Both the position numbers and the translations under genes were made by a program. 64,000 bases of DNA from Octopus vulgaris (taxonomy: Eukaryota): assembly GCA_951406725.2 (NCBI GenBank), contig OX597839.1, positions 28,768,001 through 28,832,000 on the forward strand. Reading direction: 5' to 3'. The notes under the pieces were generated by a model. It made no database searches and was not told the DNA's origin. It was given only the letters and a program-made list of their open reading frames with translations. Positions within the stretch are counted from its first letter, which is position 1. Every line of letters begins with the position of its first letter. Shown here piece after piece: positions 10,933 through 64,000 of this stretch.

Positions 10933-11434
10933 CGTATATCTTCTCATTAAAGGTTGACCTAGGCAAAACAACAACAATAACAAACAACAGCAACAAAGTA
11001 ACGCCAGTAATAACAGATATACATATAAAGAGAGTCACCTGTTGTTACAACTCTTAAATGAAAAGAATCAGAGGCGATGGTCACAGCTGGAATGCCTTTC
11101 ATCATGTCTGCTCATTGAAGGCAGATCTAGGTTAACCACCACAACAAGAGTAACATCGACAACAATAAATATAAGCAAGGCCACCTGTTGTTACAGTTGT
11201 TAAACGTAAAGAGACAGAGGTGATGGCCACAGCTGGAATGCTTTTGATGATATGTATACTCATTGAGGGCTGACCTAGTTAACCACCACGAGCACCAACA
11301 ACATTAGTAACAGTAACACTGATATATATATATATATATATAAACAGGTTATCTGTTGTTACAGAGGTGATAGCCATGGCTGGAATACTTTTCATTGCGT
11401 TGAGAACTAACCTAGTTAACCACCCCCACGACCA

Positions 11435-11857
11435 GCCGTTCAAGAATTTAGACCTGGAGATCTCCATTTCCAGCGACTTCGAGGGCCACCTCCCAGTGGT
11501 GTCGGGCGTCAACGAAGAGCCCTCGACTACAACAAGACGACCAAAGTTTTTTTTTCCTCCCAAGGTCTGAGGTTTCCCTAGACCAGTGCTTTTCAACCTT
11601 TTTGCTGGAGCGGAACCCCAAGGAAACATTTCACTGGTTCGAGGAACCCCTGTGCAATAATTTAATTGTCTTATTCGCACATATCTGCACAGGAGAATTA
11701 AAAATTACTGTCGATTTTAGCATTTTTGTAACTTCTTGCGGAACCCCTGGACTGTACTGGCGGAACCCTAAGGTTCCACGGAACCCTTGTTGAAAACCAC
11801 TGCCCTAGACCATCACCTAATCACCTTTACCCGTCTTATTGCTTAACAACAACAACA
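11435..11857 (+). mobile_element. Short (~205-nt net) headless retroposon with (AAC)n tail and 13-bp TSD; contains an HDV-like fold; interrupted by a hAT MITE
   Basis: TSD acccccacgacca at 11422-11434 and 11858-11870; second copy at 50768-50980 with the same 5' start. Confidence 0.75.
11584..11802. mobile_element. hAT-superfamily MITE
   Basis: TIR cagtgcttttcaac / gttgaaaaccactg; 8-bp TSD ccctagac at 11576-11583 and 11803-11810; subterminal ggaaccc repeats; empty site at ~50921. Confidence 0.92.
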
Positions 11858-12384
11858 ACCCCCACGACCACCAACTAAGACAGTAACATTCGCAATAACA
11901 GGTATATCTTCGTATAGAAAGGTCGTCTGTTGTCACAATTGCTAAACGTAAAGAAGCAGAAGGGAGAGTCACGGCCGGAATGCTTTGGCCGGAATGCTAT
12001 ATGTCTATTCATTGAGAGCGGACCTAGTTAACCACCCCATCGACTATCAACAACAACAACGTCAATAACATCCATAATATCAGGTATATTCTTCGTATAA
12101 AAAGGTCGTCTGTTGTCACAGCTGCTAAACGTAAAGAAACGGAGTGGGTGGCTACGGTTGGAATGCTTCTGATTGCTTTGAGAGCTGATCTAGGTCAAAC
12201 TCCACCACCACCACTACCACTACTACCAACATGAACAACAACAACAGCAACAAATAAACGGTATGTCTTAATATAAGCCGGCCATGTGTTATAAGTTGCC
12301 TCCGTGTGACAAGCAGACGTCTATCGACTGAGACGCTGACCTTGCACTGACTCCGATTTCCCTCATTAATCAAACAATACAGCA

Positions 12385-20504: not shown

Positions 20505-20848
20505 ATTGTATGGATTTTTTGGACGTTGACTGATTCCAGACACTCGTGTTTCTCTCCCAGTCGGGCAACGCCGGTGGTAGGGGTACTACCCCGTTCTTCT
20601 ATAAAGGGTTAGTAGAATTCAAGTGTAACGACGTCCTGGTAGAAACCCTAGGCTTCGACGAAGATCAACTGGCCAACCTATTCCAAAGAACATTTGGTCC
20701 GGGGCCTATGGATAATTACCAAAAGTCCCTTGTCTGGCAATGTTACAGAGTAGCTTTACCGGTTCGAGATAAGCTCTTTAGACATGGGTGTGCGCCTTCG
20801 CCGGTTTGTGCAAGATGCGAACAGGATAGTGAAACCGTCCTGCGTGCG
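20505..20848 (+). mobile_element. Tx1/L1-clade LINE ORF2 C-terminal fragment (zf-RVT)
   Basis: WQCYRVALPVRDKLFRHG...SPVCARCEQDSETVL matches the W...LP....L..hG...CxxC...ET..H signature of zf-RVT. Confidence 0.8.
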
Positions 20849-20929
20849 GTAAAGACCGACCAAACGTTGCTAAGCATTTTGCTTTGCGTGCTAACGATGT
20901 TGCTGCATATGTAATTGATGTATGCTTAT

Positions 20930-26591: not shown

Positions 26592-27297
26592 CATCATGGC
26601 TCGGCTTCGCGAACGAAGATCAGGAAGGCTGTCCACGTTGCGTGCATGCATGCTCATGACTGACAAGTCCGATATGGGAAAGGCAGGTCCATGAGCAGTG
26701 TACACAGACGAAGGTAACATCCGGTGTGGTGTCAGAGGCGGCTCGCGCCTTCCTCCTGCGTTTCTTGTCTTTAAGTGCGTCTCTTCTTTGTTCCTCAAAC
26801 TTGCTGACTGCGTTGAAGATCGTGTGGCGCCAGACATCACGGTCCGCAGCCAGGTCTGACCAGCATTGGTGGTTAATTTGACATGCTGTTAGAGACTTCT
26901 TGAGGCAGTCTTTGTAGCGCTTCCTCGGAGCTCCTCTCACTCGGTGGCGGTGGAGAGTTCGCCAAACGGCAATCTTTGGAAGGCGATGGTTCTCCATTCT
27001 GGTGACATGCCCTGCCCATCGGAGGTGGGACTTCAGTAGCATGGCTTCAATGCTGGGGATCTCGGCCCGCTCCAAGACTTCAATGTTTGTGACGAAATCA
27101 CTCCAGTGAATGTTGAGGATGGTGTGGAGACATCGTTGGTGGAAGCGCTCGAGGAGACGCATGTGACTGCGGTAAGTGATCCAGATCTCTGAGACGTAGA
27201 GAAGAGTGGTGAGAACCACGGCCCTGTAGACACTGATCTTTGTTTTGTTCTTCAGGTTATTATTGTGCCAAGCACGTTTGTACAATCGTGTTTGGCA
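26592..27297 (-). mobile_element. 5'-truncated RTE/BovB-type LINE (post-RT C-terminus)
   Basis: TKISVYRAVVLTTLLY.SE.W...RFHQRCL..IL.I.W...LRWAGHV.RM...RLPK...CxxC...SHIGLVSHEHAC; (TGA)n-like tail; 12-bp TSD aagatataagat at 26580-26591 and 27298-27309. Confidence 0.93.
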
Positions 27298-28229
27298 AAG
27301 ATATAAGATATGAAATATAGTTATATATAAGGATACCATGAATATATATATTGTTTGAAAGATTATGGTTTATATTCTGTGTATTTTTCTTTCCTTTTTT
27401 TTATCGCGACCCACTGAAGGGTCACAGTCCACAGTTTGAGAAACGCTGGTTTACAAGCTTCGGTTACAAAGTATTCTAGCGCACATTGTATAGAGTTCTG
27501 TAAGCATTGGTCCTCTCCTCCTTTTCTCTGTCTTTGATTCATTTGGTGGTGGTTTGGGTTGAGGGAGATGAGGGACGACGAGGATACAGAAATCTATGAG
27601 AGACGAGAGCGGAGAGGAAAGCGGTCCAGAAGGTTGAGAAAGAGGCAGGGTGAGGGGGATGGGGAGAAGGGAGAGGGAGACAGAGAGAGAAAGGGAAAGG
27701 AAGAGGGAGAGACAGAAAACAGACAGACAGAGGGAGGGAGGGAGAGAGAAGGGACGGAGAGGGGTGAGAGAAAAGGAAACGGGAGACAGACAGACAGACA
27801 GACAGTGGAGTGAGAGATTTGAAGGGTAGAAACAGTAATTAGTTGCTAAAATAACCAAACCAATTCACAAATAATAAGGAAGTGAAATCGAACCAATGCG
27901 TGTTATTAATGGTGTGATGATCCTCCCGAAATACAACAACAACAGCAACAAAGTTTTTAAAACTAAATTAACAACGGTGGGACGGAAGTACCGTTACATG
28001 GTCGGTCAATCTGCTAGAAATAGTAGTCAAATGCTGCTTATATCACACTCAAACGAGTGACAAGTCAAGTTTCTCTCAAATCATCTTTTTACTCTTTTCT
28101 TCTACTTCGTCTTCCTCCTCCTTTTCTTTTTCTTTTCCTCCTCCCCCCTTTACATCCTGCTCCTGCTCTTTCTTCCTCTTCCTTCTTTAAATTCTACGTT
28201 AAACAAATGATTCTTAAACTGACAGAGTT

Positions 28230-30709: not shown

Positions 30710-31144
30710 CATCGTCGAGAAATGACGATGGAGTGAGACGAGAAGGAAGTAGTTTGAAGTATTTAATGATTTTTTTGCTTTTAATATGGACTCGTTCTTC
30801 TTTTTTGTTCATTTGGTTATTGTTGTGGTTGATGTTGTTGTTGTTGTTTAGCCTATGCTCAAAGCTGTTCCAGCCGTGACCGTTCCCTCTTATCTGTCTT
30901 TTATTTGCAGGCTGTGGAAGAGCATTATCGAAGGTGTCCTGCCTTCTTTTATCTTTTGTATCTTTTACATGTTTCAAGCATTGGATTGCGGCCATACTGG
31001 GGCACCATCTTGAAGATTTTTAGTCTAACAAATCGCTCTCAGTACTAATATTTCTTTTAAATTTGATACTTTCTCTATCAGTCGCTCCTACCAAACGCTA
31101 AGTAACAGGGACGCAAAGTTACAAACCAACACCGGTTAGCAACT

Positions 31145-33619: not shown

Positions 33620-34372
33620 TCTGGCGATTTTCTGTGCTTGAGAAGACATGTCAAGCTAAGTAAAATTGTGGGTGTCGTTGTATATGGGCATGTCCCATAC
33701 ACCCCTCTTCAGCTGAATGATCTTAACCTTGTGGCTTCGTGGGTGCTGGTGTCACGCAAAAAGGGCCTGTACCAGTGCCACTTAGCAAGCATCTGTGCTG
33801 GTGCCATGTAACAAGTAGCCATGCTGGTGTCACATTAAAAAGCACCCATACTGGTCCCACATAAAAAGCTGGTACCATGTAAATAGCACCCGTGCCGGTG
33901 CCACGTAAAAGGCACCCGTGCTGGTGCAATGTAAATAGCACCCGTCCTGGTGCCATGTAAATAGCAACTGTGCTGGTGCCATGTAAGAAGCACCCATGCT
34001 GGTCCCACATAAATAACGCCCATGCCGGTGTCACATGAAATGCACCCATGCTGGTCCCACATAAATAACACCTGTGCTGGTGCCAACCCGTGATCGTGCC
34101 ACATAACAAGCACCTGAGCTAGCGTCACATAAAAAGCACCCATGCTGGTCCCATGTAAATAACATCTGTGCCAGTGCCAACCTGTGCTGGTGTCACATAA
34201 AAGTGCTGTGTCAGTGGCACGCAAAAGTACATGGCAGTGGCACAAGTGAAGTGCTTGGCATTAGGAAGGGCATCCAGCCTAAGTGACCATGCCAAAACAG
34301 ACATGGAGCCCGGACAGCTCTCCAGCTGTCCAACCCATGCCAGCATGGATAAAAGATGATGATGATGATGAT
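33620..34372 (+). mobile_element. Family D element with an expanded internal array of ~26-bp hairpin units (~33743-34240)
   Basis: Roughly 18-20 units of gtgctggtgccacgtaaaaagcaccc, then ggcattaggaagggcatccagc and an (ATG)n tail. Confidence 0.85.
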
Positions 34373-45087: not shown

Positions 45088-45496
45088 ACGGTGAGCTGGT
45101 AGACACGTTAGCACGCCGGGCGAAGTGCTTAGCGGTATTTCGTCTGCATTACGTTGTGAGTTCGAATTCCGCCGAGGTCGACTTTGCCATTCATCCTTTC
45201 GGGGTCGATAAATTAAGTACCAGTTACGCACTTGGGTCAATGTAATCGACTTACTACCTATGTCTGTCCTTGTTTGTCCCCTCTATGTTTAGCCCCTTGT
45301 GGGTAATAAAGAAATAGGTATTTCGTCAGTCGTTATGTTCTGCGTTCAAATTCAGCCGTGGTCGACTTTGCCTTTCATCCTTTCGGGGTCGATAAATAGT
45401 ACCAGTTACACACTGGGATCAACGTAATCGACTTAATCCCTTTGTCCTTGTTTGTTCCCTCTATGTTTAGCCCCTTGTGGGCAATAAAGAAATAAG
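45088..45496 (+). mobile_element. SINE family B, dimeric
   Basis: Head followed by two gtcgactttgcc...tttagccccttgtggg units. Confidence 0.88.
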
Positions 45497-46389
45497 AAAC
45501 AACAAAATTTCTTTCTCTAATATTTTGCATAGTTTATTTACCATGTTTTTGGCTGCCAAACCATGTTCTTACAGCAAGTTTTATTGCAAATCTACACAAG
45601 AGAATGGGTGGAAAAGAAAATAGGGATTTTGAAAGAAATACCTATAAAACTAGTTTGTAGACACCAAATGGTTATGGGGGTCCACCAGAATAAAATATTA
45701 ATCAAAGGGGTCCAGAGTCCCATAGGTAAAAAAAAATGGCTGAGAACCAACGGTGTAGAACAACTGATTTTAGTGAAAATTCTTTGGTGGAATAACCCAG
45801 TGTGACCCTTGCTAGCAACAATGGGGTTTGTTGAAAAAAAACTGATGTAATGCGACAGTTAGTAGTTGGTAGGACATGTTTGTTTTGGAATAAAATGAAG
45901 AAGATGGAAAAATAAACAAGAGGAAAACAAACTCCAAAAGAAAGAAAAAATAATAGTAATTATCAGAAAGGATTTGAATCATGTTGAGGTTGTTGTTGTT
46001 GTTGTTGAGCCCCAGGCTAGTTCTGATAAAAATTAACATTGATCAAAGGCAATCCAGCTGTGAACATCACAGTATTTTCTATTCAGATGCCATAGTAATA
46101 ATGATGCAAAACTAAAGCTACCAAAACAAAGCCAGCGTCACCGTTATTTCTATAACTACAACCATTATTGCATATATTTGAGAACAAATATCGCAATTGA
46201 GATGCCATTATGATAAAATCAATCATAAATTTGTATTGGTAAATTGATTAAGAAACAGCAAACCACAGCAGGATACGACATAACTTGAAGCTGCGCAACT
46301 CAGTTCCAGGTCTGGCAATGGACGAAGATAATAGGAATTAACCATTGGCAAAAAAGGGGAAAAGAAAAAAAGCACTTTGTTTTTTTTTT

Positions 46390-50216: not shown

Positions 50217-50767
50217 ATATATATATTTTAAAATTAAGGATATTCTATTGTCTGTGGAGAGTCATTCTCTTTTGGGGCCTTATAATTTGACACACTCACC
50301 AATAAATTTTCCACTTATTTCTTTTTTATTTTTCTAAAATTTTCGTTGTGTCTTTACAACATTTTCAAGGCTATTGAAAAGGTTGTTAGGGTTAGGGTTT
50401 TGGTAATTGTCGTGTTTATGTTTAACTGATAACTCGACAGGGTGAACATACGAGAGGGAGATCTCTGCTATGTTCTCTCTCTCTCTCTCTCTAATACACA
50501 CACGGCATGCAAAGGAGTTTCATTTGGAGTAACTAGCTGTCTAGCCCGAGAATTTGTAACACTCATCGACAACAATTTAATTAAATCAGTTTCTGTATAA
50601 TCAAGCAAGGGCAATGGATTTCATAATGGTCCCTCGACCTGCTAGAAATAGCAGAGAAATCACCATAAAAGGGAAAAGAAGAAGTGGTCATAACTGGAAT
50701 GTCTTTTGACTATACTTCTGCTGGATCAAGACTGATCTGGAGCTAAACATCACTGTTGCCACCAGCA

Positions 50768-50980
50768 GCCGTCCAAGAATTTGGACCTGTAGCTCTCCAT
50801 TTCCAGCGACTTCGAGGGCCACCTCCCAGGGGTGTCGGGTGTCAACGAAGAGCCCTCGACTACAACAAGACGACCAATGTTTTTTTTTTTTTCCAAGGTG
50901 TGGGGTCTCCCGCTCCTAAGCCCTAGACCATCACCTAATCACCCTTACCTATCTTGTTGCTTAACAACAACAACAACAAC
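50768..50980 (+). mobile_element. Second copy of the short HDV-like-fold retroposon (no hAT insert)
   Basis: High identity to 11435-11575 plus 11803-11857; (AAC)n tail. Confidence 0.8.
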
Positions 50981-63087: not shown

Positions 63088-64000
63088 TATTGTATTGTAT
63101 TGTATTGGCATCCTTTCTGTCTCGGGAGACAATGGAGTTGCGCATGTTTTTTTGTTTTTGTTTTTTGTTTTTTTGTAGTCTAGTCCGGCTTTTACATTTC
63201 ATGTCCTGGTACATTTCCTGCTGTGGCTGTGTAGTCCTATCCTGGACAAACACTCCCTCTTGCAGGTACCGCAAATGTAGTGAAGACTGTTCCTGGCTGG
63301 TTGTAGTGCCATAGTCTCTTGTTTACGTCTCTTCCTTTCTTTCCATTTCTCCTCTCTCTCTCTCTCACTCCTTTGTATTCCCTCTTTTACTGTACGTCGC
63401 CATTCTCCACGGTTGCCGGCAACTGCCTCCCAACCGCTAATATTGATGTTGCAGGCCTTCATGTCCCTTTTGCAAACATCCCTGTAACGTAAGATCGGTC
63501 TACCCACAGACCTAGTACCCCTAGCAAGCTCTCCGTAGAGTATGTCCTTGGGGATTCTGCCATCTTTCATACATCTAACATGCCCAAGCCATCTCATACG
63601 TCTTTGTGTGAGGAGTGCAAACATGCTTGGCTGAGGACATCTTTGTTGGGGATATGATTCTGCCATTTGATGCGGAGGATTTTTCGGAGGCAGCGCAGGT
63701 GAAAGATGTTTAGGCGACGCTCTTGGCGTGTGTATAGCGTCCAGGTCTCGCTTCCATACAGTAGAGTGCTGAGTACACATGCCTAGTAGATCTTCATTTT
63801 CGTGGTCTTGGTCAGCTTACCGAGTCAAAAGCCTTTGTTAGATCAATGAAAGCCATATATAATGGCATTTTCTGCTCTCTGGACTTCTCCTGAAGTTGGC
63901 GTATGGAGAATATCATATCGATAGTTGATCTGCTTCTTCTAAAGCCACACTGCGATTCCGGATAGATTCGAGAAGCAAGTAGTTGTAGCCTGGCCAGGAT
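63088..64000 (-). mobile_element. RTE-clade LINE with an internal RT deletion; runs off the window end
   Basis: 63821-64000 reads IYPESQCGFRRSRSTIDMIFSIRQLQEKSREQKMPLYMAFIDLTKAFDS; then TKMKIY*ACVLSTLLYGSETW...RWLGHV..M.DGRIPKDILYGEL...CGTCKRECLSRIGLHSHSRKC; (CAATA)n tail. Confidence 0.95.

Follow-up and report, generated by a model that had tools for sequence, protein, structure and literature searches.

[quoted passage not shown]

What sets the 5' end of a short non-coding retroposon that carries no polymerase III head? This question is raised by a locus in a 64,000-nucleotide stretch of Octopus vulgaris DNA (assembly GCA_951406725.2, contig OX597839.1, positions 28,768,001 to 28,832,000), hereafter the window, where positions 11435-11857 had been read from the sequence alone as a head-less, SINE-like mobile RNA whose 5' end is defined by an HDV-like ribozyme, with the caveat that no clean 7-bp P1 helix could be found. 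This is still the best reading of the locus, and the caveat can be removed: a perfect 7-bp P1 exists, in two pieces, and the predicted cut falls at the observed 5' end. As modelled, the first 92 bases of this non-coding retroposon of about 205 nt constitute a P4-less HDV-like ribozyme with a P1 split 3+4, which is probably functional and would set the element's 5' end.

Boundaries and content of the element

Copy 1 starts at position 11435 of the forward strand and is framed, as first noted, by exact 13-bp target-site duplications (11422-11434 and 11858-11870), the 5' one being part of an older repeat's CAC/CAA-rich tail; its 3' end (11803-11857) runs into an (AAC)n tail from 11845. The length originally given, about 205 nt, suits the second copy and not the interval 11435-11857, which measures 423 bp because a 219-bp hAT-like MITE that had gone unmentioned sits inside copy 1 (11584-11802, strand unassigned). 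This MITE, which has imperfect 14-bp terminal inverted repeats, is flanked by an 8-bp duplication (11576-11583 and 11803-11810), occurs as a single copy in the window and is absent from copy 2, is a later insertion into copy 1. Copy 2 (50768-50980, forward strand) is uninterrupted, with a 195-nt body and a tail at 50963-50980; it begins with the same five bases as copy 1, is identical to it at 91% of the first 144 nt and at 93% of the final 56 nt, and differs from it at 7 of the first 112 bases, three of its private changes being damaging to the fold described below. No clear long duplication frames copy 2 (the longest candidate, within a CAG run, has 5 bp at most), the 13-bp duplication being seen in one of the two copies.

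The window is repeat-rich animal DNA, and both copies are inserted in the tail of one and the same older repeat family. This diverged repeat, with CAA/CAC/CAG-rich tails, is found at 11019-12219 (five units in a loose tandem array), 45995-46077 (reverse strand), 50662-50767 and about 30830-30900 (reverse strand). The similarity common to the upstream flanks of the two copies was rejected as part of the element: it belongs to the older repeat, the tail of which is the target, and shows about a thousandth of the element's depth in sequencing contigs. Searching the window with a model built from the sequences of the two copies retrieved only relatives of that upstream host repeat and no further copy. 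Further repeats at 45134-45494 and 33787-34200, tandem or nested, are ones that we take to resemble octopus SINE families.

Regarding content, the retroposon holds no ORF, no A/B box pattern and no tRNA, which bears out the lack of tRNA boxes reported at first, and it contains an internal T run (11547-11555, 9 nt; 13 nt in copy 2). A T run of such length would stop RNA polymerase III. A search of 11300-12000 against Rfam with E up to 10 returned five chance matches, none of them a ribozyme, the HDV and CPEB3 models giving no match. With neither boxes nor a tRNA nor an Rfam match, and with the T9-T13 run, a tRNA-, 7SL- or 5S-derived SINE was rejected.

A predicted HDV-like fold with P1 in two pieces

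In the numbering used here, G11435 is base 1 and C11513 is base 79; all parts of the fold lie on the forward strand. P2, P3, the 7-nt L3, the 7-nt P1' and the CGAA with its C at 11513 are where the sequence-only reading had placed them, and what it had missed is the 5' strand of P1. The first half of that strand, P1a (GCC, 11435-11437), opens with G1, the predicted cleavage site, and pairs with 11505-11507; then follow, as the two halves of an insert, hairpin A (11438-11453, 6 bp and a 4-nt loop, z -3.1 in copy 2) and hairpin B (11454-11473, 8 bp and a 4-nt loop, z -2.4); the second half, P1b (CGAC, 11474-11477), pairs with 11501-11504 and precedes a 1-nt J1/2 (11478). The 5' strand of P2 (11479-11487) forms 9 bp, with one bulged A, with the 3' strand that ends the ribozyme fold (11517-11526). 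The 3-bp P3 and its 7-nt L3 UCCCAGU (11488-11500) present the U20- and G25-equivalent bases, and the continuous 7-nt P1' strand (11501-11507) leads into the 3' side of P1.1 (GU) and a 3-nt linker (11508-11512). These three bases stand in place of P4, essentially absent as had been noted. P1.1 consists of one C-G pair, C59-G74, plus a possible C58.U75 pair, and J4/2 (CGAA, 11513-11516) opens with C11513, the predicted catalytic cytosine.

In this arrangement bases 1-3 pair with 73-71 and bases 40-43 with 70-67, seven of seven pairs being Watson-Crick in copy 1, and the 36 nt between the two halves are two abutting hairpins (bases 4-19 and 20-39) without a spare base; P1 is predicted to be a four-way junction. 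HDV-like ribozymes cut at G1, and since P1 draws on the element's own bases 1-3 and 40-43, the predicted cut coincides with the first base of the element, i.e. with its observed 5' end. Contiguous P1 registers starting upstream were rejected, as none of them pair. Copy 1 has one broken pair in hairpin A and copy 2 has two in hairpin B; otherwise the two hairpins are complete in both copies, as they are in the family majority. When bases 1-95 of copy 1 are folded with the P2 and J4/2 strands kept unpaired, the split P1 forms unprompted with a probability of 0.90-0.95 (P1a 0.95, P1b 0.90-0.93), together with hairpin B at 0.96-1.0 and hairpin A at 0.2-0.4, the low value of the latter being due to its private change. 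Taking all 34 proposed pairs over the two copies, 65 of 68 cells pair (95.6%) vs. 29-47% when the strands are slid, a score computed on the same two copies from which the structure was derived.

The element thus shows a P2 and a 3-bp P3 with a 7-nt L3, a P1.1, a 7-bp P1 from G1 and the catalytic C, and it has a 36-nt two-hairpin insert instead of the contiguous P1 5' strand of described members and search descriptors; with this insert between pairs 3 and 4, it is filed as an HDV-like variant and not as a canonical member. A C at the fifth position of L3 (the C24 equivalent) is also part of the usual HDV-like descriptor; Drosophila R2 has it, and the octopus element has an A there in both copies, with no variant in the contig rows listed. 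Of the features said to be retained in copy 2, U57, G62 and the catalytic C79 are indeed present in both copies; its L3 ends in G and not in U, and the core descriptor (P2, P3, L3 and J4/2) fails on it. By eye, bases 54-69 are alike at 14 of 16 positions to the primer for the conserved catalytic region of Drosophila R2, as given in the text of the source (PMC3414825).

How readily shuffled sequence yields such features depends on how strictly they are defined. A P1, split or whole, that starts at base 1, keeps the register and is all Watson-Crick occurs in 66 of 200,000 mononucleotide shuffles of the 43-nt head and in 1,764 of 200,000 dinucleotide shuffles (first and last base fixed), and these counts rise to 5,718 and 28,241 of 200,000 once G.U pairs and a J1/2 of up to 6 nt are allowed; in other words, a G.U-tolerant split P1 arises in 0.7-14% of shuffled heads. 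Shuffled 36-nt inserts close cleanly in some way in 2,378 of 200,000 cases, tile as cleanly as copy 1 in 307 (3+8 pairs; the threshold was a minimum of 3, and of 10 in sum) and match both hairpins at full length in 3 (at least 6, and 13 in sum). Over 60,000 shuffles of the 195-nt body, the core descriptor fired in 7, with any P1 in 3 and with a P1 starting at base 1 in none. Applied to the window itself, it detected copy 1 alone, missing copy 2, whose L3 end is changed, and three dead-catalyst control descriptors gave one false site, with U at the catalytic position. The fold energy of the head is not unusual (426 of 2,000 shuffles are as low, and 40 of 2,000 pair all of P1'), and the z-scores of the whole element lie between -0.4 and -1.1.

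Beyond the window, an exact-pattern scan of metagenomes with the 29-nt core gave 0 matches, and a 17-mer gave two, both viral. A looser pattern running from P3/L3 to CGAA returned at least 120 metagenome loci, from 30 of the 64 parts of the collection, and all of these loci behave as chance: one has a 9-bp P2 including two G.U pairs, none equals the P2 of the element, and among the seven best none has a Watson-Crick P1. One Streptomyces match was rejected as chance by its context.

These counts bear on the view that the locus is an ordinary short repeat or a LINE 3' end in which a ribozyme-like pattern occurs by chance. The missing Rfam match, the unremarkable z-scores, the false descriptor site in the window and the lack of covariation described below are in its favour; against it stand the 0 of 60,000 shuffles that combine the core with a P1 from base 1, the 14/16 likeness to the R2 catalytic region (PMC3414825, as far as its text goes) and a sharp 5' edge with unlike flanks in four of four sequencing runs. 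We regard it as the least probable of the explanations considered, at very long odds. The related proposal that the element is simply a LINE 3' UTR with variable 5' truncation, set out beforehand as what would overturn the ribozyme-headed reading, likewise finds no support, given the sharp depth step and the unlike flanks.

The family in sequencing contigs and the stability of P1

Four of the 24 sequencing runs listed, each DNA-type or unlabelled and together carrying four organism labels, supplied contigs that were aligned on copy 2, with 6,743, 3,560, 2,716 and 2,611 contig pieces per run; no RNA run is among those listed, which has no bearing on expression. From 50750-50759 to 50770-50779, the summed depth rises 803-, 914-, 1,255- and 1,356-fold, and this step at base 1, in all four runs, bears out the defined 5' end that had been deduced from the shared start of the two copies. 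In the 11 rows listed, the loose 5' ends all fall at 50763, 50766 or 50768 (90, 86, 77 and 63 contigs), those at 50763 and 50766 because the CAGCA or CA of the copy 2 flank matches CAG/CAA repeats. Upstream of the edge, the flanks disagree (agreement 0.41-0.58) and are mostly CAA/CAG-rich. Insertions hence share one 5' end at base 1, according to the duplication boundary and the contig edges in the rows listed. Bases 3-12 are covered at between a quarter and a half of the core depth, and a further 433 loose-end rows lie outside the listing, so that some 5' truncation is possible. Each run has no fewer than 63-90 different contigs that span a 5' junction; summed depth is no copy number, and thousands of copies are inferred. 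The family is abundant and young.

Two further observations were made on the contigs. Two head-to-tail joints of the element occur (runs X1 and X6; window 50700-50980), in which the second copy restarts at or near base 1 (50768). In run X4, eight contigs depart from the element at 50877, just past the ribozyme, and continue in another sequence that they have in common (agreement 0.74 over a median of 9 letters), possibly a longer relative or a chimera.

Four of the seven differences between the two copies damage the fold, namely at base 16 in copy 1 and at bases 23, 26 and 63 in copy 2, and at four of four the majority letter of the family is the fold-keeping one (98-100% at 23, 26 and 63; no variant at 16 among the rows listed, which leave out four variant rows). 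The split-P1 structure had been noted before the contigs were seen, and the test is a modest one, with a 1 in 16 outcome by coin toss. Base 6 separates subfamilies with C or U (U at 13% in one run and 67-69% in three), which turns a C-G pair with G17 into U.G. Nearly all other variants are C-to-T or G-to-A changes at 2-12%, mostly at CpG, including base 73 and C79, the latter being kept in 95-97% of summed depth with CpG decay as the remainder. The C/U variation opposite G1, previously offered as a sign of pairing, is such a case: it lies in a CpG, U is a 6-10% minority at the level of other CpG sites, and it is not covariation. None of the 34 pairs changes on both sides and one shows a one-sided subfamily change; the family is too young for covariation, hence the lack of compensatory changes. 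The lack of any P1 helix and of P2/P3 covariation had been named in advance as evidence that would tell against a ribozyme: the helix has been found, and two-sided changes in P2 and P3 number zero.

The three pairs of P1a are fragile in sequence context according to nested folding models (P2 blocked, pseudoknot left out), and this gives real grounds for doubt. In copy 1, P1a has a probability of 0.21 once 30 nt of the upstream flank are included, of 0.15 with bases 96-112 and of 0.01 with both; with hairpin A enforced, the values are 0.59, 0.34 and 0.07, respectively. In copy 2 with hairpin B enforced, P1a stands at 0.88-0.95 alone and at 0.01 with its flank. Bases 102-108 can pair with 71-76 on the P1' side and act as a downstream competitor, and by likeness to the attenuation of L1TcRz, cleavage would be co-transcriptional and locus-dependent. 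In the text of the published work, the inactivity of other HDV-like ribozymes was blamed on single P1 mismatches (PMC3774820), and in Agam-2-1 activity was low with a J1/2 of 1 nt (PMC4908430). A fast nematode ribozyme with a C.U pair in P1.1 is described (PMC13635239), and P4-less HDV-like ribozymes are known from silkmoth R2, abalone and phages (PMC10879173; PMC3774820). No report on the effect of the L3 position-5 base was found in the text of two mutagenesis papers (PMC9901934; PMC7026644).

From this, it could be argued that the fold is real and was inherited from a LINE 5' end but has since become weak or inactive, with the start of the copies set by an internal polymerase II promoter, as with Pr77 in L1Tc, or by a single master transcript. 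The fragility of P1a in context, the 1-nt J1/2 and the A at L3 position 5 would all fit, Pr77 is described as both promoter and ribozyme in the text of PMC3383444, and a young family cannot show selection. Set against these points, the majority letters of the four runs preserve every pair as well as the catalytic C, and a dead fold needs neither G1 as its first base nor two hairpins closing without a spare base; we consider this explanation unlikely, while giving it more weight than the other alternatives.

Alternatively, only the 4-bp P1b would be used, as in jewel-wasp R2, or some other register, with the 5' hairpins as a separate protein-binding or stabilising domain and the GCC match as incidental. 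According to the text of PMC3774820, one R2 ribozyme has a P1 of 4 nt, and P1b persists in most of the contexts that abolish P1a; a ribozyme of this kind would cut before C40, which is not a G, and remove the first 39 bases, whereas the copies begin at base 1. This makes it highly improbable, though marginally less so than a chance pattern. The split P1 with its cut at G1 accordingly is kept as the preferred reading of the fold.

Proposed mode of action and related elements

Under this preferred reading, a copy would be transcribed from an upstream host promoter, as suggested by the absence of polymerase III boxes together with the internal T run. In the transcript, bases 1-3 and 40-43 would pair with P1', hairpins A and B would stack across as a four-way junction, and P2, P3 and P1.1 are predicted to complete the double pseudoknot. 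C79 would then promote cleavage just 5' of G1, freeing the element from read-through transcripts, probably during transcription, since bases 102-108 can later pair with P1'. A LINE reverse transcriptase would bind the 3' end, which with its (AAC)n tail is likely the part recognised by the LINE protein, and would prime at CAA/CAG-rich sites, repeats that resemble the element's own tail. What is seen at the end of this path is a single 5' end, flanks rich in CAA/CAG, an (AAC)n tail and, in copy 1, a target-site duplication.

By analogy, the retroposon would work like R2 SIDEs, NARTc/SIDER and the bipartite LINE derivatives, a mode of action treated in the text of a review (PMC6765202). In Drosophila, R2 SIDEs and R2/R1 hybrid SIDEs are likewise non-coding and independent of polymerase III, built from an HDV-like ribozyme on the 5' side and a 3' end of LINE type, and in R2 SIDEs the cut site lies at the 5' junction, as predicted for the octopus element; according to the same text, R2 SIDEs are confined to 28S rDNA, in low copy, of about 500 nt (R2Dwi_SIDE), and their ribozyme has a contiguous P1, a long J1/2 and a P4 (PMC3414825). 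The octopus element, in contrast, is about 205 nt long, dispersed and abundant, prefers CAA/CAG repeats, and has no P4 and a split P1. In trypanosomatids, NARTc, RIME and SIDER with Pr77/L1TcRz are also short, dispersed and non-autonomous, with an HDV-like ribozyme head, and downstream sequence can switch the L1TcRz fold off, as predicted here for bases 102-108; they differ in belonging to the protist L1Tc/ingi clade and in a 77-nt hallmark that doubles as promoter, and the text of that source describes no P1 insertion (PMC4035085). [quoted passage not shown] The octopus element matches neither RTE-like 3' end of the window. Mollusc SINEs with LINE-derived heads are also on record (PMC4758252, in its text).

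As for the ribozyme itself, the minimal P4-less examples (drz-Mtgn-1, theta, silkmoth R2 and abalone) likewise have no P4, with the catalytic C first in J4/2 and a short J1/2, according to the texts of PMC10879173 and PMC3774820. In the texts of PMC4908430, PMC11331408, PMC10879173 and PMC3774820, the peripheral inserts of HDV-like ribozymes lie in J1/2 or P4, and none is mentioned in P1. A literature search over main texts, i.e. figures and supplements aside, returned neither a cephalopod retroposon of HDV-like type nor an HDV-like ribozyme in which P1 contains a junction; Ruminski 2011, Webb 2009 and Repbase/Dfam fall outside this coverage, and the repeat may already have a name in Repbase/Dfam. 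Literature searches pairing octopus with HDV ribozyme, and searches for octopus SINE names, found nothing. The novelty would lie in the split P1 of an HDV-like ribozyme and not in ribozyme-headed non-autonomous retroposons, a kind already represented by R2 SIDEs and NARTc/SIDER, and at this level the first impression that no known family could be matched is not supported.

A bolder reading, to which we give somewhat less than an even chance, takes the ribozyme to be active and of a new architecture, with P1 as a four-way junction 3 bp from the scissile bond and P4 absent, setting the 5' end of a promoter-less 200-nt retroposon at thousands of copies; the hairpins may replace P4 and J1/2 as a stabiliser or bind the LINE protein, and split-P1 ribozymes would be an overlooked class missed by contiguous-P1 searches. 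A P1 split by two hairpins is a ribozyme shape that standard searches would miss. If the element does cleave, the tolerance of the HDV fold is widened at its most sensitive helix, contiguous-P1 searches have a blind spot, and an unusually small and abundant animal retroposon without a polymerase III head would imply that a ribozyme front and a LINE-type tail suffice. More speculatively, copies lying inside host transcripts could cut pre-mRNAs, with a possible effect on the host.

Regarding the partner LINE, no match was found in the window and no clear longer relative among the loose ends listed at 80% identity. LINE ORF 3' fragments are present at 26620-27369 and 63199-63816 (both reverse strand), without a confirming match in Pfam; we take them to be RTE-like. 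They were rejected as partners, the comparison of 3' tails with LINEs that had been suggested for this element showing that both 3' ends differ from its own. A short frame at 20534-20914 (forward strand) matches zf-RVT weakly, at E 5.6e-4 and short of the curated cut-off, and is probably an L1/Tx1-type LINE remnant. RTE-BovB and Dong-R4 are described as expanded in coleoids (PMC8967140) and both clades as carriers of 5' ribozymes (PMC5786205) in the text of these sources, which makes them the first candidates. As to what a LINE protein might recognise, the 3' half of copy 2 (50890-50962, forward strand) is predicted to form a long stem with interruptions (z -2.6, a stability reached by 3 of 200 shuffles) that is a candidate recognition structure, and it is in the 3' arm of the equivalent stem that the MITE of copy 1 landed.
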